DNA of 64,000 bases, from assembly GCF_006345805.1 (NCBI RefSeq), contig NC_043012.1, positions 44,516,001 to 44,580,000 of the forward strand, in the 5' to 3' direction. How positions within the stretch are numbered: the stretch's first letter is position 1; every line of letters starts with the position of its first letter. Under the pieces are notes generated by a model that saw nothing but the letters and a program-made list of their open reading frames with translations, had not been told where the DNA came from and did no database searches. The translations under genes and the position numbers were made by a program. Source of the stretch: Octopus sinensis. Lineage: Eukaryota. Positions 20,255 to 61,898 of the stretch are shown in pieces.

Positions 20255-23200
20255 TGGCGACGAGGCTAGACATGTGTGCTATGCTGCAGTTACCAACACA
20301 ACTGTGGAGTATTACTTCAGACAAACCATCCCCCGCCAAATAGAATTGCTGGAAACGTTCATTTGGGGATTATTTAGAACTACTTCCGATACTACAACCA
20401 ACCATTAATTTATCAGAATGTCACAAAATAAAGTTATGCCAATTACTTGGGCAGGAAGGACAAAGACACTTTGACGCCTTGAGAATTATGGAATCTGCCA
20501 CATTAACTAAAGTTATTTGGTTTACTGAATGAACTTTGGGGATCTGCTAAAAATGTGTACACAGCATGTTACTGTTTTACAAAATTAGTTCAAAAACCTG
20601 AAGAAGATTGCAATGATTCCATTGCCAGAATACAACAAGCTTTACCTGAGAGTAAATACAATCTAATTCCTCCAAAAATATTTGAAAACGAAATGGCTTT
20701 CTGGTATTCATGATGAGACTGTCCATTCTAAATTGCTTTCAGAAGAAGAATTAAAGCTTACTTGCGAAAGAGCCTGTGCTATAGTTTGTCAAAGCGAAAA
20801 ACATTTCACAACAGTTTATTAAATTTTCTATACAAAAAGAGACAGATGCTGTGCAATCTATTACATCTACAAAAACTTGGCCATCTAGTCTTACAGAAAA
20901 ACAGCCGTGGATTTAAACATTATTCTCCATCTGAGTGCTGGCATCAGCAAACCGTTTGTCATTTATGTGGTAAAACGGGACATCTTGTCAGAGTTTGTTG
21001 TACAAAGAACAATGAGCACAGAGCTTCATCTTCACAAAAACATTCAGTGCAAACAATAAAGACAAATCTGGAAAACCAAGACCAAGATTTTGCTTTAAAT
21101 TCAGTTTTAAACACTACAGTACGACCACCTTCGTACGTTGTCGATGTGATAATTGAAGGTCAGTCAGTACGCATGGAAACTGACTCAGGTGCTTCAGTCT
21201 CTATTGTTACCACTCCTTCTGTCAGCTGTTTTCCATTTTCTACAAACTATTCAACTTTAAAAACATATACCAGGCAATAAATCCCAATAATTGGAGTTTG
21301 CAATGTAAACGTGTAACATGGTGATATCAAATGTGTTGGGCCGTGATTGGTTATGACAATTACCTGGTACATTCACCATGATTAAAACTGTGATACACCA
21401 TCATTGGAACAACTGGAAAAAGAATATTGTAGTTTGACACCAAGCATGAAAAATTGAATGGATTTAAAGCTAACATAAAATTACTTTCCAACATGTCACC
21501 GCAGTTTTGTAAAGCTCAAACACTTCCATACACTTTGCAGCCAAAAGTGGAAGCTGAATAACAACGTTTACAATCGGAAGGTGTTATTGTTCCAGTTCAA
21601 TACTCTGATTGGACAGCTCCCATTGTACCAGTGATGAAACCGGGTGGCTCAGTGTGCATTTGCAGAGATTATAAACTTACAGTCAACCAGTCAGCTGTTT
21701 TAGACAAGTACCCGTTACCTAAAATAGAAGATTTGTATGCAACTCTGGCGGGAAGTCAAAAGTTCACAAAAATTGATCTCAGTCATGCATATTCCCAGAT
21801 TAAACTTGATGACAATTCTTGTGCTTGCACTACGATTGCTACCCATATTGGGTTGTTTTAATTTACTAGATTACCATTTGGAATTAATTCAGCCCCAGGA
21901 ATGTTTCAGCGCATTATTAAAGAAGTACCATGAGCTGGTGCATACCTAGATGATTTACTAATCACCGGACGTTCCGATGATGAACCTCTTCATACATTAT
22001 TCATCGTACTCAATCGTCTTCCCAAAAGTGGATTAAAGCTGAAGAACAAGTGTGAGTTTTATGTGATTGTTTATCTTGGTTACCAACTTAATAAAGATGC
22101 TTTACAAATTAGGAGTGATAAAGTGCAACCTATTTTAAATGCACCAGAACCTAAAAACAATAGGGAGTTAAGATCATTTGTAGGAATGTTATCACATATT
22201 TGAACAGTACTGACACCCTTATATTCCTTATTGCATAAAGATTCCCTTTGGGGTTGGAATATACTTGTGCATTATGATCCGCATAAACGTTTAATGTTAC
22301 AATGTGATGCATCTCCATCAGGGCTAGGCGCAGCGTTCTGTCATCGAATGAATGAGAGTACTGTTCGTCCTGTAGCAAAAGCTGAAAAGAACTATTCTCA
22401 GTCGGACAAAGAAGCACTTGTAGTTTTATTTGGTGTCAAGTGATGCCATCAATATGTTTGGGGGCCGTCATTTTGAAATCTGTAATGATCATAAACCTTT
22501 GATTGCACTACTTGGAGAAGAGTGGGGTATTCAGCAAATGTGTTCCCCTGGAATGCAGGGATGGGCTTTGATGTTAAGTGATTATAGTTATCGTATGCTT
22601 TACGTTCCTGGGTCTAAGAATGTTAATGCTGATGCATTGAGTCGTTTTCCCTTGACTTCTTTGTTACACGAAATTGAACAACCAGCGGAACTGGTACACA
22701 TGATGCAACATTTTAGTGACACACCTATCTGAGGACAGAATGTACTTTGACTAACAAAGATCAAATACTGTCCTGTGTCAAGCATTATCTTTGAAGAGGA
22801 TGGCCGTCCCAAACAAGTTTAAGATTAAAACAGTTTTTACAACGCAAAGATGAACTGAGTTTGCATGAGGGTTGCATACTTTGGGGTCCTCATACCTTTT
22901 AAATTAAGGTAACAATTGCTTAATGAGTTGCATGATGCTCATCCAGGTATAAATTGAATGAAGGCATTATCTTGACGCTACTATCAGTGTCCAATCTGGA
23001 TGCTGATATTGAGCAGATGTGCAGAAGATATGACGTTTGTCAACAACATCAGTGACAAAACAGGACCTGTACATCCCAGGAATTGGCCAGCAAAACCGTG
23101 GCAAAGGTTATACGTTGATTATTTTGGCCCTCTTAATGTATGATGTACTTATTGGTTATTGATGCACATTCGAAATGGAGAGATGTACATCCAGTGGTAC

Positions 23201-23475
23201 ATGTTACAGCAGAAGCTACGGTAACCCGACTATGCTCATCATTTTCTACATTTGGGATTCCAGAAGCAATCTGTTCAGATAATGGTACTCCTTTCCAAAC
23301 ATTTTTGAAAAAGAATGGGGTACATCACATAAGAACTGCACCGTATCTTCCGTCTTCAAAAGGCCTAGCAGAACGAGCTGTTCAGACAGTAAAGAATGGA
23401 TCAAAACAGCAAAGTACTGGAAACCTCCAGACTAAACTGGATCATTTACTTTTTGCCTATCGCACAACCCCAACT
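20255..23475 (+). mobile_element. Degenerate Ty3/Gypsy element (Mag/K02A2.6-like), 3' truncated
   Basis: PBS TGGCGACGAGG (tRNA-Ser GCT type); CCHC knuckle CHLCGKTGHLVRVC; PR METDSGAS; RT PLPKIEDLY...KIDLSHAYSQI and YLDD; RNase H LQCDASPSGLGA; IN LVIDAHSKW, SDNG, GLAERAVQTVK. Many stops and frameshifts; no 3' LTR seen. Confidence 0.9.
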
Positions 23476-24202
23476 GGTTTGACAGGAGCTTGCAAGCCAA
23501 AGGATTGCACTAGACTCCACTGTCTGATTTCGCATGGTTTTTATGGTTGGATAACTTGCTAACACTAACCACTTTACAGAGTGTACTGGATGCTTTTCAT
23601 GTGGCACCAGCACCAGCAAGGTCTACTCTGGCATGGTTTTACAGCTGGATGCTCTTCCAAATGCCAACCACTTTGCCGTGTAGCCTGGGTGCTTTTCACA
23701 TAGAAAACATATTTCTAAATGTTGGTTTAAAGAGTTATATTAGAGTGGGGAAACGAGAGTATGTGGTGTTCATATTTTGACCAAAAAAATTCAAGATGGA
23801 GTGAATGAAAACAATCACAGACTCTATTTGGTGAGAATTTACATCCCATCAAGATATTAAAATCAGATCAATAACAGAACAGTATTCCAAAGAATATTGA
23901 TTGATAACTAAGATAAAAATTGAAAACATAGATTTTAAAAGATTTCTTTTATTCTCTGTCAAATGAAAATCTTCAGCTAGTATATTGAATTTTGTCACGT
24001 AATAAACAGCAAATAAATAAACAAAAAAAAAATAAACAAAGCAAATTATAATGAAATTGTTCAGTTTTTGGAATGCAGCATTTTCAGAAGGGAAGAATAT
24101 AAAACAAGTCACTGTCAGTTCATAAAAATGAAATTAAAAGAACAAAAGTAAACAAAAAGGAATAAATGAAACAAATAAACAAAAAACAATGCTGACTTTG
24201 AA

Positions 24203-24848: not shown

Positions 24849-26134
24849 CGAGGGGCGTTGTTTGATCTAGCTGAAATTTTGCGTGTGCTATTATTTATAT
24901 CTCTATAGAGTAGGTGGAAAATTACAGCTCTGAACTAATTGGGGTTTCTGATTTACAGGTGTTTGAACTGAGTCAAGTGTGAAATGGAGCCTGTTGAGTG
25001 TCGAGCAGTGATCCGGTTTTTGTATTTGAAAGGACGCACACCACAGGAGACTTTTCATGAAATGAAAGTAACTTATAATGATGATGCCCCATCATATGAC
25101 CTTGTAAAACGCTGGCATCGTGAATTCAAACATGGTCGGAACTCGATGGAAACAGCTCCCAGATCTGGTCGCCCCCCCTTCTGCAATTGTTGAGGCATCT
25201 GTCCGTCAAGTTGAGGCTGCCATTTTGGAAGATCGACGCATAACTATTCGCCAAATAGCCCACGAGGTAAGATTAGTATCAGGTCTGTGGAAACTATCAT
25301 TCATGACCATTTGCATATGCAAAAGGTGTCTGCCAGATGGATTCCCAGGTTGCTCACACCTTTCCAGAAGCAAGAACGCGTGGAGTGCTCGAGGATGAAT
25401 TTGGAGATGTGCCAAGAAGATGAGTCAAAATTTTTCAAAAGACACAGGATGAAACCTGGGTCCATCACTATGATCCAGAGACCAAAGCCCAGTCAATGCA
25501 GTGGAAAAACCGTGACTCACCTCCTCCAAAGAAGGCAAGGGTGCAGCCCTCCGCTGGCAAGGTCATGCTCACAGTCTTCTGGGACCAGGACGGAGTATTG
25601 ATAACAGATTTCCTGGAAAAGGGTACCACAATTACAGGAGCCTATTATGCTTCACTTTTGAGGAAATTAAGAGAAACTATCAAAATCAAGAGGCAGGGCA
25701 AGATCAGCAAAGACATCATCCTCCTGCAGGGCAAGATCTGCAAAGACATCGTCCTCCTGCAGGACAACGCTCCGGTCCACAACTCGCTTGTCGCTAGATC
25801 AGAAGCACAGGCGTGCGGCTATGAACTCCTCCCCCATCCCCCTACTCTCCTGACCTTGCACCCTCTGATTTTCACCTCTTTCCAGCCATGAAGTTGTTTT
25901 TGAAAGGAAAGCGTTTCTCAGATGATGCAGCCTTGATTTCTGAAGTCACGTCGTGGTTGGAGGACCAAGCTGGGTCTTCTAAAAAAAACGGTCTCCAGAG
26001 CTGCATCAAACGATGGGAGAAATGCGTAACTCTGGGTGGTTCCTATGTAGAGAAAGACTAATAACTGTGCAAAGTTTCGTTGCTCTACTGCTATGGGAAG
26101 TGGGTCAGGGGCATTACTTATTGAACGCCCCTCG
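24849..26134 (+). mobile_element. mariner DNA transposon (Hsmar2/irritans-like), frameshifted, in TERB2 intron 5
   Basis: TA-flanked CGAGGGGCGTT termini; WIPRLLT, DETWVHHYDPETK, QDNA and YSPDLAPSDFHLF motifs; short internal duplication at GKISKDIILLQ. Confidence 0.93.
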
Positions 26135-54329: not shown

Positions 54330-54663
54330 TATATTATATATATATATAATATATGATTAATTAATAAGGGTGAGAGAATTAGATACTAATTTAATAGTAT
54401 ATCTATTCAACACCAAGTGGCCCAGTGCTCCGAGAAACCTGGATTATTATAATATTTTGTAATATATTATAATATTTTATACAAAAATAAATATAAGAGA
54501 GTGGTCACTATATGGCTCACTCTAGCACTAGTTAATCCAAAAGGTTTCAACCACAAAAATACATGTTTCCCATGAAAGTCAGTACGATTGTTAGCTCACA
54601 CGAACAGGGCAAATAAAAAATAACAAAAATACAGGTGTGATTGAGTGGATTTCATCCAGATAG

Positions 54664-54745
54664 TTTTGGCTGAGGAGCTACAAGTGGATTTTTTTGTAAG
54701 TAAAATTACATTTAATTCATTAATAGCGAAACAATTGTCCCAAAA
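54664..54745 (+). ncRNA. Type-I hammerhead ribozyme, copy 1 of a tandem pair
   Basis: Stem I TTTTGG/CCAAAA; core CTGAGGA; stem II GCTA...TAGC; GAA; palindromic stem III ACAATTGT; GTC cleavage (cut after 54739). Confidence 0.85.
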
Positions 54746-55199
54746 TAATCTGTATTTTTGTTATTTTTTATTTGCCCTGTTCGTGTGAGCTAACAATCGT
54801 TCTGACTTTCATGGGAAACATGTATATTTGTGGTTGAAACCTTTTGGATTAACTAGTGCTAGAGTGAGCCATATAGTGACCACTCTCTTATATTTATTTT
54901 TGTATAAAATATTATAATATATTACAAAATATTATAATAATCCAGGTTTCTCAGAGCACTGGGCCACTTGGTGTTGAATAGATATACTATTAAATTAGTA
55001 TCTAATTCTCTCACCCTTATTAATTAATTATAATTATGCTACATTTATTTCTAAATGTAGTATTTGTTTCCGTGAAAGTTTGGCGCGCTGTTAGTAGGGG
55101 CATTTGAATTATAACGTCGGATGTAATCAATTGAACCACACGTGTATTTATCGTTATGGTAAAATCTGGCGTGTGATTGAGTGGATTTCATCCAGATAG

Positions 55200-55281
55200 T
55201 TTTGGCTGAGGAGCTACAAGTTGGGTTTTTTGTAAGTAAAATTACATTTAATTCATTAATAGCGAAACAATTGTCCCAAAA
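55200..55281 (+). ncRNA. Type-I hammerhead ribozyme, copy 2, 536 nt downstream of copy 1
   Basis: Same stems and core as 54664-54745; cut after 55275. Confidence 0.85.
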
Positions 55282-55498
55282 TAATCTGTATTTTTGTTAT
55301 TTTTTATTTGCCCTGTTCGTGTGAGCTAACAATCGTACTGACTTTCATGGGAAACATGTATTTTTGTGGTTGAAACCTTTTGGATTAACTAGTGCTAGAG
55401 TGAGCCATATAGTGACCACTCTCTTATATTTATTATTATTATTATTATTTATATATATATATGTATATATATATATATTATATATGTATATATATATA

Positions 55499-55582
<84 letters not shown>

Positions 55583-56288
55583 TATATATATATATATAAT
55601 ATATATATATATAATCGTATTTTAGAAAAACAAATCCGGAGAAGCACTTTAAGAAGTAGAGCAGTCTACCAGTAATTTATATATATATATCCTAGTTGAT
55701 CTGAACACTTGATTAAAACAGTTCAGGATATAATCGCATTGAATTGAAAGCAAATTTCTAATATTCTTATGAATAATTAAGCTCAACTAAATAAAAGTAA
55801 TAAAATATTTAGTTAATATGTGAAAGGATAGATTTCTTTGAATTAAATTTGTTTTTAATTCTTATAAAGACACAACACAAACGATTCAAAATACAAAGGA
55901 TCATTACTATTCCTCAATAAGAACCGGTAGGAATAAGAGTATATTAAAAAAGGTTTTTAAACATTCTCTAAAAGGGAACCAAAAGTGATTAAAGTTGGTT
56001 TGAATATTTAGAGAAGGGGAGATAACTACGACGAAACACGCGAAAATGTGCGTCAGTCTATTTTAATTTTTAAGTCGTCTTAAATGTATTTCTTTCGAAG
56101 GGATACACACACGTTATATACATACAGGCATACATACATGTATGCATACATTCATACATACATGCATACATACATGCATGCATACATACATACATGCATA
56201 CATACATGCATACATGCATACATACATACATACATACATTCTTCCTAGAATGTTAAACCTTTGGAAATCTTCCCCTACTCAAGTTTTC

Positions 56289-57093
56289 GGATCTTCTCGG
56301 TTTGAACGGCAGTTTTTTAAAATAATTTCCACGTAACTAAACACTTTTAAACTTCGTATACTGGTAGAATGTGTTTATAAAACATCATTTTTTTTTTGGC
56401 TTTATTGAGAAAATTCTTTAGGTTGTAAGATATTTCGTCTGAAATTTCGAGCATTTCAGCAATTTTAACCAATCGCTGGAGTCCGTTTAGGTAAACAACA
56501 TTCCGTGCTGTATGAATATGTCCCTCCTTTAAGAAACAGATTGGGTTCATTTACATTTGTGAAGAAAAAAGATACCTTTCCCCTGCCACTAACCCTAACC
56601 CTAAATCTAAAATAGATTGAAATGCAATAGATCGATACTAGGGCCATAATTATGGGTAACATTTTCATTTGACACCGCTAGAAAAAAATCCCATTTTCCG
56701 TAGCGGTGTCGTATGAAATTGTCACCCATAATTATGGCCCTAGTATCGATCTATTGCATTTCAATCTACTTTAGATTTCTGGTGAGAGTCAGGGTTAGGG
56801 TTAGTGGTGGGGGAAGGGTATCTTTTTTCTTCACAAATGTAAATAAACCCAATCTGTTTCTTAAAGGAGGGACATATTCATAAAGCACGGAATGTTGTTT
56901 ACCTAAACGGACTCCAGCGATTGGTTAAAATTGCCAAAATGCTCGAAATTTCAGACGAAATATCTTACAACCTAAAGAATTTTCTCAATAAAGCCGAGAA
57001 AAAATGATGTTTTATCTACCAGTATACGAAGTTTAAAAGTGTTTAGTTAACTAGAAATTGTGTTGAAAAGTGCCATTCAAAAGGAAAAGATCC
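56289..57093. mobile_element. Related fold-back MITE, about 400-bp arms, centre near 56690
   Basis: GGATC...GATCC termini; outer arms homologous to 52313-53015; ctaaccctaaccctaa and agggttagggttag inside; no matching TSD. Confidence 0.75.
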
Positions 57094-57517: not shown

Positions 57518-60500
57518 TGTAACAGGATCTGGAATCGGTATCACTGAAGGGGTGTCGATCCGATCCTGTCACATACAATTTAGTTAGATATAACAGACGA
57601 AGTCAGGTTATCGGTGAAAGATAGCAGTGTTGTTTATTATTCGTGATGGTGTACGTATCTCTGAAGGGAAAACGACAGCCGAATCTGTTGTACAGCTTCT
57701 TGTTCGTTGGTTGAAGTGATTCGATGTCGTCCGCGGCTAAGTCGGTGTAGTTATCAGAGACTACCAAATGCACGTCTGTTCACGATGGCTGAAATGGCCA
57801 GAGAGAGAGAGAGTGATCGAGTTTAGTGTTCCTTAGGGGTCAGTTTCCCGCACATGCGCATGGGGAAGACTTCCGGTGGCCACCCGGAAGTAGTCCCATT
57901 CTGCGCATGCGCGCTGAACCTTACACAGTAGCATCACTACATGGCTCCCCCTCGAGTGCGGAAGTACGAAGACAAGAAAATTTGTAGTGGTGCTGCAGAA
58001 AAACAGATGGCTTGCCGATCCCCAGAAGATTTGGTACATAATATCATACAAAAACAAGAAATTTGAAAGAAAGTTAAATATAAATTGTCTTTGAAAGTTT
58101 CTTGGGCCAATGCACTGTTCTGCCCGATCTTGTAATATACGGTGTGCTCGGGGCACCCGTTGACGGCGAAGGTGGTGTTGTAGGAGCCGGTGAAGGCAAA
58201 GGTGTCTGTGCAGGTGAAGGTGTTGTTAAAGGTGCATAGGTGGGTGTGGCAAAAGATGAAGACGTCTCAAAGTATGCTTTCTTTAATCGGTCCACGGAAA
58301 CGGTCTCCGAATGACCATTTATTTCAATAGTGAAAACCTTAGGTGTGCGAGAAAGCACACGGAAAGGTCCTTTATAGGGAGAAACAAGTGGCCCCTTGAC
58401 AGAGTCGTCCCGAACAAAAACATGCGACCAAGTGTCCATATCCGGTGGGAGATGGGATGGTGGAGATTGCTTCCTGGGAACCATGGATGGAAGATTCGAG
58501 AAATATGCACGCAGTCTGGCGACATAGGTCGCCGGATCATGGGGCTGGGGAGTGTCTGGCACCAACATCGTACCAGGCAATGCCAGTGTGGTACCATACA
58601 GCAGCTCTGCAGAAGAAAACCCCAGGTCTGCCTTGACAGCAGTCCGACAACCGAGAAGCACAATTGGCATAAATTCAATCCAGGGCTGTGGGTCTGAAGA
58701 GGCACGAAGAGCGGCCTTGAGCTGTCTATGGAACCGTTCAATTAATCCAGAAAAACCGAGCAGTGATCAGCTTAAAGGTGGCAGCGATGCCAGGATGTGA
58801 TAAGGAGTGCAGTGCTTCAAACACTGAGTGTTGATGATTCTCAGGCACGAGTGGCCTGGGAGAACCAGTGGAAGTATCACAGAGAATGGTGCCTTCGGCT
58901 GACGGAAGCGGAAGGTAGGAAAACTGGCAACAGGAGAACTTGGGAGAAGTTAAGTCTAACGACGCCAAAGGTGGCTGCTCCTGCGAGATGGCAGTTAAGT
59001 CGATAGCAGCAGGAGACGAAAGGGCGCAGACTGGAAGGCGAGAGAGAGCGTCAGCAGGAACGTTCTCTTTTCCAGGTATGTGTCGAATGTTACTAGTGAA
59101 TTGAGAGATAAAATCCAGGTGCCGGAAAGCACGAGGTGAGAGTTTGTCCGTTTTTGAACACAGGGCAAACGTAAGGGGCTTGTGATCCGTATAGATCACA
59201 AAATCTCACCCTTCAAGTTGATGCTGGAAATGACGAACCGATAGATAGATCGCTAGGAGCTCACGATCAAAGGTGCTGTATCGTCGTTCAGCTGGTTGCA
59301 GTTGGCGGGAAAAGAAAGCCAGAGGTCGAATATGATCATCCACTGTGTGTTGTAACACAGCGCCAATCGCAGTGTCCGATGCGTCTACAGTCAAAGAGAG
59401 AGAAGCACCAGGAACCGGATGTGCAAGCAAAGAAACAGAAGCCAGCTCCTTCTTAATGGACTCAAAGGCTGTGAGTGCCTCAACAGAGAGGGTGACTTGA
59501 CCGTCCTTTCTAGGAGTATCCTTTAATAGCCTGGTGAGAGGAAGTAGCTTATCTGCACAGCCGGGAATAAAACGTCTGTAGAAATTGATCATCCCTAGAT
59601 AATGCCTGAGCTGGCGCAAGGAAGTGGGGGGTGCGATGCGTTGAATGGCATCGACCTTTGACGACAGGGGGCTGATTCCACTCGAATCAATATGATGGCC
59701 TAGAAAATCTAGGGAAGAGCGTCAGAAAAAACACACTTGTCGGGATTTATACGTATGATATAAGCGCGAAGACGCTGAAAAAGCTGAGAAAGGTGCTGAA
59801 GATGATTTTCACTTGTGTCGCTCGCAATGAGTATATCATCGACATAGGCAAACGCAAAATCAAGACCGCGGACAACCTCATCAATGAAACGCTGGAAAGT
59901 GCTAGTAGCATTCCGCAAACCGAAACTCATATACAAAAACTCAAAATACCCAAAAGGGGTAGTGATCGCAGTTTTCGGAACGTCGGCTGGGTTGACCGGT
60001 ATTTGATGGTACGCGCGTATAAGGTCGACCTTCGAAAAAATGGTACAACCATGGAGATTTGCCGTAAAGTCCTGTAGAATTCTGATTGGATATCTGTCGG
60101 CTATTGTTACGGCATTGAGGCGTCGATAGTCTCCAACCGGGCGAAAATCAGACTCGCCCTTTCGCGCCAAATGAAGGGGAGACGCCTATGGGCTGGTGGA
60201 GGGGCGTATAAGGCCAAGTTGAAGCATGAGCTCAAACTCGGCCCTAGCCGTTTTTAGTCGGTCAGGCGCAAGGCGCCGTGGGCGCGAAAATACAGGTGGC
60301 CCAGTGGTGGTGATAAAATGGAGTGTCGAGTGGGTAGGCTTTTCCGGTTGAAAGGCAATGTCCACTAGCTCCGGAAATGAAGCCAAAAGAGAGTGAAAAG
60401 CGTCTCCAGAGGTGGCAACAAAGAATGTCGGGCTAAGGACCGCATTGGTGGAACTCCCAGTCGGCGTAGAGAGCGACATCGTGCTATCAAGAAGCCTCCG

Positions 60501-61898
60501 ACGCCTGACATCCACCAATAGATTAAACCTATCCAAGAAATCAGCGCCGAGAATAGGATGCGGGATGTCAGCGATGACGAAAACCCATTGAAAATCTCGA
60601 CGAAGGTTGATGTCGAGGCGCAGCGAAATCTGACCGAAGGTGGTTATGGGAGACGAGTCAATGGCATGCAAGACAATTGAAGAGCGCTTGGGCTTGTCTG
60701 CAGTCAGACGAAGGGGCCAGATGCTGCAACAAGAGCCGATGTCCACCATGAAGAATTTCTTCGACACCAGATCTTTTACAAAGAACGCACGATTTTTGGG
60801 AAACGAGAAGGAAGAAGGTGACGTGCTCACCTCCTCCGGATTTAGTTTTCCGAGGGCTGGAAAGTGCACGGCTGGGTACACCGTTCTGCCTTTTCGGCAG
60901 AGCCACTGCGACTACGACTGCGTGGTCGGCGCCCGATTGCACGGCACAGATCATCGATTCGCCGCGTGAGCGCATCGAGCCGCTCGGCTAATGAATTTTG
61001 CGTCGGAGAAACTGTCGGAGGGGGCTCTGTACATGCGCACAGGCCTCGCGATGGAGATGGTTTCGGAAATTCCAATATTTTATCGGCCATCAGCTCCTTA
61101 AAATTACTCTCCTCCGACCGCGTGTTGCGGCGGAGGATTTCGGCTTTCACGGACGCGTATGCGGCGTCCGGGTGGGGACTTATTATGAGATCCCTGACCA
61201 ATGTGGCGAGTCGGGGATGTAAACTTGAATATAGCAGATACAACTGCTGCTGTGGAGGAACGGCATGTGCGTCAAAATGCCACTCCACCTGGGCAAACCA
61301 CAGACCCACATCCCCTGTGAATGAAGGCAAACCTGATGCAGCCATGTTTGTCCGAAGAATCGTCTGTCAGAAAGGGGCAGAAGGTATGAACGAGAAATGG
61401 AGAACACGTGGAACCAACAAAGCAAATCAAAATCGTGTTTTGTGTACTGGTGTGTGTGTGTGTGTGTGCACCTCGTGGGTAGTAAAAAATAAGTGTGTGT
61501 GTGCACAAAGGAAAACAAAGGTACGGAAAAGAAAAAAAATAATGTGTGTATGTTTCTTTTTTTTTTTTTAGTGTACTGAGTGCGATGAATAAACTTTTGT
61601 TTTTTTACGCACCTTCGCCGTCCTGAAAGGCAAAGAAAAATGAAAATGAAAACTGAGTGTTCAGTGCTCTATCTGGCAAAACCTGTTCGCTGCGTCTTCT
61701 GTTCTTTTTTTTTTTCTACTTGGGGTCACCAATTGTAACAGGATCTGGAATCGGTATCACAGAGAGTGAGTGATCGAGTTTAGTGTTCCTTAGGGGTCAG
61801 TTTCCCGCACATGCGCATGGGGAAGACTTCCGGTGGCCACCCGGAAGTAGTCCCATTCTGCGCATGCGCGCTGAACCTTACACAGTAGCATCACTACA
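57518..61898 (-). mobile_element. Young but internally deleted Ty3/Gypsy LTR retrotransposon
   Basis: TG..CA LTRs at 57518-57941 and 61734-61898; 4-bp TSD ACTT (57514-17 and 61899-902); PBS TGGTGACCCC (tRNA-Trp type, 61722-31); PPT GAGGGGGAG next to the 3' LTR; order gag, PR, RT, RNase H, IN. Confidence 0.95.
58074..61345 (-). pseudogene. Gypsy gag-pol, disrupted
   Basis: Gag LWFAQVEWHF; protease MVDIGSCCSIWP; RT FSKVDLIRAYHQIPV and FAYVDDILIAS; RNase H TVDASDTAIGAVL and YSTFDRELLA; IN ERFHRQLK and GPF motif. Stop at 60186, frameshifts, and the IN core is missing. Confidence 0.93.

Follow-up and report, generated by a model that had tools for sequence, protein, structure and literature searches.

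A 536-nt ORF-less hammerhead repeat family in Octopus sinensis, most likely a non-LTR retrozyme copied in trans by a Penelope-like element

An ORF-less insert at positions 54356–55436 of a 64,000-nt stretch of Octopus sinensis DNA (contig NC_043012.1, positions 44,516,001 to 44,580,000; hereafter the window) lies between (TA)n tracts and carries two complete hammerhead ribozyme motifs. What kind of element was inserted here, and which enzyme copied it, is the question that this locus raises. A sequence-only reading had described two hammerheads 536 nt apart in an ORF-less (TA)n insert, preceded by a 279-bp inverted copy starting about 10 nt past the predicted cut site. The former was reproduced by a whole-window scan and a repeat comparison, and the latter was confirmed with an offset of 10 nt (Table 1).

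Layout of the insert and its hammerhead motifs

The locus holds 1.5 units in tandem plus an inverted piece. The direct repeats, compared over 54635–54898 and 55171–55434, show 5 differences per 264 positions, three of them clustered. At 54801 and 54826 the majority allele of the family is found in copy 2 and in the inverted arm alike, and the private changes at these two sites therefore sit in copy 1. The inverted arm (54356–54634) is the reverse complement of 54750–55028 over 279 bp and can be extended to 54352/55032, giving 283 nt with 4 differences; its inner end lies 10 nt downstream of the predicted cut.

Table 1. Features of the insert and its flanks (positions in the window)
Feature	Positions	Strand	Remarks
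(TA)n tract, left flank	54229..54355	.	likely insertion target; target-site duplication unreadable in (TA)n
Inverted partial copy	54356..54634	-	equals 54750-55028; outer end is the family's "long" terminus near 55032
Direct repeat copy 1, pseudo-LTR-like	54635..54898	+	meets inverted arm without microhomology
Type I hammerhead 1 (HHR1)	54663..54746	+	predicted cut 54739/54740; N7 = 54674, A15.1 = 54731
Predicted cut-to-cut monomer, 536 nt	54740..55275	+	31.5% GC, ORF-less, strongly self-paired
5' strand of predicted long-range helix	54760..54820	+	partner 55065-55115
Internal segment	54899..55170	+	place of the ORF in an autonomous PLE; covered in 4/4 runs, depth dips at 55031-55084
Hairpin with family-level compensatory change	55040..55059	+	A55041-U55058 to G-C
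Direct repeat copy 2	55171..55436	+	outer end is the family's "short" terminus near 54900
Type I hammerhead 2 (HHR2)	55199..55282	+	predicted cut 55275/55276
Short (TTA)n run, then (TA)n tract, right flank	55437..55613	.

A scan of all 64 kb for type I hammerheads returned three matches in total, including HHR1 and HHR2. These two are spaced by exactly 536 nt, with predicted cuts after C54739 and C55275, and each has the full core (CUGAGGA, GAAA, GUC) of a type I hammerhead (CUGANGA / GAAA / NUH, helices I–III, helix I open). Helix I comprises 7 bp and can be extended by 4–5 bp beyond one mismatch, the base of helix II comprises 4 bp, both helices being extended, and helix III is the perfect palindrome ACAATTGT in HHR1 and HHR2 alike. 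Matches of this quality occurred in 0 of 200 dinucleotide shuffles of the window, and a loose version of the pattern gave 0.06 matches per shuffle. The Rfam Hammerhead_1 search suggested in the sequence-only reading gave a full-model match to HHR1 (54664–54745, model positions 1–45 of 45, 28.5 bits, E 1.5e-5). This score, with 39 inserted nt in loop 2, nevertheless does not reach the gathering score of 34. Standard Rfam annotation would therefore pass over HHR1, and an Rfam scan over 6 kb listed no hammerhead, only microRNA-type hairpin matches. Because their hammerheads score below the Rfam cut-off, such families may be overlooked in repeat-rich invertebrate genomes.

The third type I hammerhead (43364–43430, plus strand; predicted cut after 43425) belongs to another sequence family, with helices of 5/5/5 and a near-palindromic helix III, and lies in an insert at ∼43120–43690 between TA/CA repeats. 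Matches of its quality were likewise absent from 200 shuffles, and it is likely the end of another Penelope-like element (PLE) or retrozyme family; a 135-aa frame at 43167–43571 containing the word DVKSLF had no Pfam match. In metagenome contigs the specific hammerhead pattern had 0 matches. Loci found with a looser pattern (two in metagenome contigs and one in viral contigs) were rejected, as their similarity to the unit was confined to the pattern (best E 0.069) and they were also without a palindromic helix III.

The longest stop-free frames of the closed unit span 47 aa on the plus strand and 81 aa on the minus strand, the latter with no Pfam match. The closed monomer is predicted to fold at −139.8 kcal/mol (z −5.3 versus 60 shuffles; 64% paired), and the linear monomer and the minus strand have z scores of −5.95 and −5.74, respectively. 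Because the minus strand also scores this highly, the predicted folds point to self-complementarity and not to one strand. The predicted circle is highly self-paired with the hammerhead helices left free: in the monomer fold helices I and II form with probabilities of 0.96–1.0 and helix III with 0.01, and two hammerheads co-fold through an 8-bp helix III at −52.1 kcal/mol, compared with −46.3 for two monomers. When the whole insertion is folded, the 279-bp arms pair with each other and HHR1 does not form its helix I, and this locus may therefore be a poor source of monomers.

The family in public sequencing runs

Public sequencing runs were searched with the permuted unit 54635–55170; all records were contigs, none of them on record as RNA. 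The family was found in 20 of the 21 listed runs, from 10 studies and four organism codes (A–D), and at least half of the unit's words were present in 9 of the runs listed. Four of the 21 were aligned, namely X1 (organism A; 4342 records), X6 (D; 348), and the presumed-RNA runs X12 (C; 185) and X15 (A; 27), and each covered 30 of 30 bins of the unit. The summed depth in X1 ranged from 1.1e5 to 1.4e6, a value that is not a copy number but that only a repeat of very high abundance would give. The share of records running into unlike sequence was 0 in both large runs, 0.06 in X12 and 0.42 in X15; 24 of 133 loose ends were displayed, and short contigs can conceal branches. All 12 rows crossing the seam 55170/54635 did so in register. 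This is no proof of a closed unit, because a truncated PLE predicts the same.

Both outer ends of the insertion recur in the family. On the right, 8 X1 contigs enter (TA)n behind 54900, and at the left, inverted end 2 X12 contigs enter (TA)n behind 55032. Depth falls ∼2- to 8-fold at 55031–55084 in all four runs, immediately beyond the long terminus. Among the records listed, a single one crosses 55032 with 31 letters on either side; some copies may thus belong to a longer parent. An equally deep dip occurs at 54905, a site crossed by two copies in the window; dips thus also arise at variable sites. Beyond the long terminus, X15 record 24 spans 54982–55170, and the hairpin at 55040–55059 is spanned by X12 records 15–16, X6 record 32 and X1 record 8. 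Its A55041–U55058 pair is changed to G–C in the four runs, with shares of 0.96/0.83, 0.37/0.88, 0.60/0.60 and 1.0/1.0. Given the records that span this link and the compensatory change, the closed 536-nt unit characterises the family in three organism codes or more, although a longer parent with the same ends may exist.

The variants listed (40 of 55) comprised 18 at unpaired positions, 12 that keep a pair, 1 compensated and 9 that break a pair, two of the listed variants breaking pairs in helix I. Single-site pair conservation was not significant (10 breaks versus 13.9, P 0.074). Among the variants listed for the large runs (X1 and X6), the sole variable position of the catalytic core was N7, the free position. 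The 11 majority alleles of X1 lowered the predicted energy of the closed fold from −142.9 to −150.9 kcal/mol. The same changes placed at random sites gave −136.6 ± 4.9 kcal/mol (best −149.7), and 0 of 60 placements matched the X1 alleles; a non-catalytic pair formed by N7 supplies 2.9 of the 8 kcal/mol gained.

Several loose ends, at 54784, 54820, 54856, 54897 and 55167 (X1, X6 and X15), loosely resemble the unit by eye and point to a diverged sister subfamily, which has the hammerhead region in common with the unit but seems to be without the hairpin near 54910–54940. This subfamily is a candidate for the pseudo-LTR (pLTR) of the helper or for an older retrozyme. Long loose ends at 55020 (X15, ∼144 nt, A-rich) and 54697 (X12, ∼255 nt), of which 30 letters each were displayed, lead into unlike sequence.

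Insertion mechanism and competing explanations

PLE insertions are described as partial tandems with an adjacent inverted 5'-truncated copy, an optional 30–40 bp tail and a microsatellite bias (passages of PMC8557442). According to the accessible sections of PMC11167929, AT-rich DNA is cut by a purified PLE protein from an anole, which then extends both strands, and the tail is defined by the two internal sites at which it starts; the PLE hammerhead is dispensable for priming in vitro. The present insertion has the same composition, a pLTR partial tandem beside an inverted 5'-truncated copy, in a microsatellite target and with two alternative 3' termini, whose spacing of ∼130 nt exceeds the 30–40 bp described. 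It also has features of a non-LTR retrozyme, namely membership of a repeated family, two consecutive 536-nt units each with a type I hammerhead, a GC content below 50% (31.5%) and no coding capacity (plus-strand frame of at most 47 aa). In our reading, the locus is one copy of an abundant, ORF-less 536-nt family that is most likely a non-LTR retrozyme, a non-autonomous element copied in trans by the reverse transcriptase/endonuclease of an autonomous PLE. The retrozyme-type, PLE-mobilised identity proposed in the earlier reading thus gains a high-copy family, a full unit in 4 of 4 runs and two recurring termini.

Under this reading, tandem copies would be transcribed and cleaved by their hammerheads, which should work best as dimers joined at the palindromic helix III. 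The product would be a 536-nt monomer, possibly closed by a host ligase; the chances for and against a circular intermediate seem evenly balanced. A PLE protein would nick both strands of a (TA)n tract, and each target strand would prime one cDNA, with an internal start at one of two favoured AU-rich sites, the first near 54900 and the second near 55032 (∼130 nt apart). One cDNA would have run 1.5 units and the other 0.5 unit, and joining of their truncated ends would give the inverted-plus-tandem layout. An L1-type twin-priming origin of the inversion is less favoured than two-ended PLE priming, given that the outer end of the arm recurs as a family terminus. One idea, which comes from a single 10-nt offset noticed post hoc, is that the inverted arm ran off at a cleaved 5' end; none of the 24 loose ends displayed (of 133) showed a recurrent end at 54750.

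Copying beyond one unit needs a circle or a tandem RNA, and the template could equally have been an uncut linear multimer, because the anole hammerhead is not needed for priming and the two copies are not identical; their 5 differences in 264 nt would not have come from a single circular template unless mutations followed. Junction reads from 55275 to 54740, once put forward as a mark of the circle, are not diagnostic versus tandem read-through, because tandem DNA already contains that junction sequence; no difference separates the direct-repeat copies over the first 61 nt past the cut. A PLE-dependent internal-deletion derivative that moves as uncut linear tandem RNA, with a hammerhead inherited from its parent's pLTR, is accordingly a serious if less probable account, which needs neither monomer nor circle and differs from the preferred reading only in the RNA intermediate. 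It agrees with priming by the PLE protein on unprocessed RNA and with the lack of reads ending at the anole PLE cut site (both from the available part of PMC11167929), with the homology of Xenopus retrozymes to pLTRs (bioRxiv 10.64898/2026.07.22.740005, as far as accessible), and with a locus whose direct-repeat copies differ and whose outer ends both lie away from the cut site. The predicted helix 54760–54820/55065–55115 could then reflect pairing of the 5' and 3' UTRs around a loop that formerly contained the ORF. Against such a derivative stands the core, which both copies retain intact and which, in the two large runs, varies at N7 alone; selection for cleavage would produce that pattern. 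With its 2 bp and palindromic tetraloop, helix III is also of the retrozyme kind rather than the minimal PLE type, and no ORF remnant is present.

The element is not an autonomous PLE: the 272 bp between the repeats are without an ORF, and GIY-YIG had no Pfam match in any of the 205 complex frames of at least 62 aa in the window. Nor is it a plant LTR retrozyme, the topology here being type I; elements of that kind have a type III hammerhead in their LTRs, along with a primer binding site, a polypurine tract and a 4-bp duplication. The insert might still be the truncated 3' end (pLTR) of an autonomous PLE, its 536-nt spacing being a chance re-priming junction of this insertion or of its donor. 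The depth dip at 55031–55084 in 4 of 4 runs would fit, and short contigs could hide a branch into an ORF. We consider this unlikely. The template was continuous at the short terminus, since the inverted arm runs across it, and the link region, with a compensatory change of its own, occurs under three organism codes. In addition, the displayed loose ends upstream of 55067, 55097 and 55132 resemble the unit itself (by eye). The counter-case that had been named at the outset, a truncated pLTR of an autonomous element, is not favoured. The inverted ends of the insertion could also recall a DNA repeat of the satellite or MITE-like kind, which recombination or DNA transposition has spread and whose hammerhead is decayed or incidental. 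That origin is very improbable, as the inverted arm copies part of the interior rather than forming a terminal inverted repeat, the insertion's two ends correspond to different positions of the unit, and complete catalytic cores are present far beyond chance.

Relation to known elements and A>G clusters

Non-LTR retrozymes, tandem ORF-less units with type I hammerheads and circular RNAs, are known in coral, mussel and axolotl, and PLEs have been proposed as their helpers (sections of PMC7229834 and PMC7761336). The unit resembles the metazoan examples of Cervera and de la Pena 2020 (PMC7229834, accessible text) in being a non-coding tandem with one type I hammerhead per unit, a GC content below 50%, a self-paired predicted circle and a short palindromic helix III; a mollusc is among them, with Mytilus units of 350–390 bp. 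It differs in its length of 536 nt, against RNAs of ∼170–400 nt there, in its long helices I and II, and in having an inverted 5' piece and a (TA)n site, neither of which is mentioned in the same accessible text. Circles were demonstrated in that study, whereas for the present unit the circle is a prediction. Animal hammerheads typically have a short palindromic helix III and fold as dimers, according to portions of Cervera and de la Pena 2014 (PMC4209133).

In the available text of Li, Clavereau and Pollet 2026 (bioRxiv 10.64898/2026.07.22.740005), retrozyme units range from 51 to 972 bp and are tied to PLE pLTRs, and 1 of 9 predicted Xenopus dimers cleaved in vitro. The tandem arrangement here, with complete type I hammerheads in two consecutive units of 536 bp, falls within their definition; their sample, as given in that text, comprised 31 vertebrates, three insects and a coral, and no mollusc. 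Their link to PLEs is drawn from co-occurrence and pLTR homology, whereas ours is drawn from insertion structure. With EN+ PLEs, as portrayed in parts of PMC8557442, PMC11167929 and PMC4209133, the insertion shares a partial-tandem pLTR with a hammerhead inside, an adjacent inverted 5'-truncated copy, a (TA)n target and two alternative 3' termini. It departs from them in a unit without an RT/GIY-YIG ORF and in termini ∼130 nt apart instead of a 30–40 bp tail.

Octopus Naiad and Hydra families with a (TA)n preference are listed in the supplement of Craig et al. 2021 (PMC8557442, in the part available). In that material no pLTR homologous to the unit was found: the Hydra-1_Obim hammerhead has stems different from those of HHR1 and HHR2, and six short motifs from the window had 0 matches, where line breaks could mask one. 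The accessible text of the giant squid genome paper reports 235 Rfam hammerheads, and that of an O. vulgaris repeat paper reports 31 recently active Penelope-like families, with no mention there of "hammerhead". A literature search on hammerheads, retrozymes and Penelope in cephalopods, in which subscription papers were thinly covered and supplements may list one, found no such family; this negative refers to literature only, and Repbase or Dfam could contain a consensus unnamed. The novelty first claimed was hence overstated: the class is described, including in a mollusc, and its dependence on PLEs is argued in a 2026 preprint. The present unit is likely a further family of this known class, with no cephalopod report found in the literature searched. 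The enzyme that mobilises animal retrozymes has so far been argued only from co-occurrence and pLTR homology, and a young, abundant ORF-less family with a full PLE insertion signature and two mappable priming sites makes the question testable in vitro. What raises the locus above routine is this insertion signature with its two mappable termini, together with a hint of editing in the core.

That hint comes from X12. At 54731 (A15.1) 14 contigs of this run, 0.14 of the depth, carry A>G, with 0 in X1, X6 and X15. Five sites reach at least 0.1 in X12 while staying at or below 0.03 in both large runs, and all five are A>G (54731, 54801 from the majority A, 54817, 54818 and 54879). In one X12 loose end (2 contigs), 9 of 15 A are changed by eye over 30 nt at 54719–54748, all of them to G, and 0 of 15 other letters are changed. 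Clusters of this kind are the pattern of ADAR hyper-editing, and those seen here, across the catalytic core including A15.1, look like ADAR editing in one presumed-RNA run. T>C changes are also listed for this run, at 12 places compared with 3 in the large runs, an indication that both strands are transcribed, for example by read-through of inverted copies. X15 is dominated by alleles rare in X1, although both are of organism A (54665, 0.50 versus 0.00; 54691, 0.76 versus 0.00), as selective transcription would give if X15 is RNA, as presumed. Both presumed-RNA runs cover the unit, and their contigs give no ends, strand or topology.

It is conceivable, though we think it improbable, that host A-to-I editing, including that of A15.1, switches off the ribozyme of an abundant animal (possibly cephalopod) retrozyme family. 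The equally doubtful corollary is that editing of A15.1 would block release of the mobile monomer or lock circles shut. The premise would be an effect of inosine at hammerhead position 15.1. Literature searches on that effect gave no usable passage, and those on retrozymes and ADAR editing surfaced one unrelated review only. More simply, read-through transcripts of inverted copies may have been edited. If the signal holds, heavy A-to-I editing would be tied to the control of a catalytic mobile RNA; were the reading true, editing would be what keeps the hammerheads of metazoan circles from cutting in vivo, and mobilisation of retrozymes by PLE proteins would have direct structural evidence in the two fixed priming sites.

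Other repeats lie in the same window. The (TA)n tract that holds the insert contains a second one at 53952–54228, a near-perfect palindrome (225 nt aligned, 97%), in which no hammerhead was found and which may be another inverted PLE-type end. An Rfam mir-9 match at 54085–54156 was rejected, as both strands of this palindrome give it. Inverted arms of 220 nt, 95% complementary and MITE-like, occupy 56389–57004, with a related copy near 52309–52991. Pfam matches in the 205 frames were to Ty3/Gypsy-like, mariner and short RT pieces. Broken Ty3/Gypsy-like remnants with RT, RNase H and integrase matches lie at 57800–61400 (minus strand) and 20700–23600 (plus strand), and a mariner-type transposase is present in two copies, at 24972–25888 (plus strand) and 45145–45957 (minus strand).
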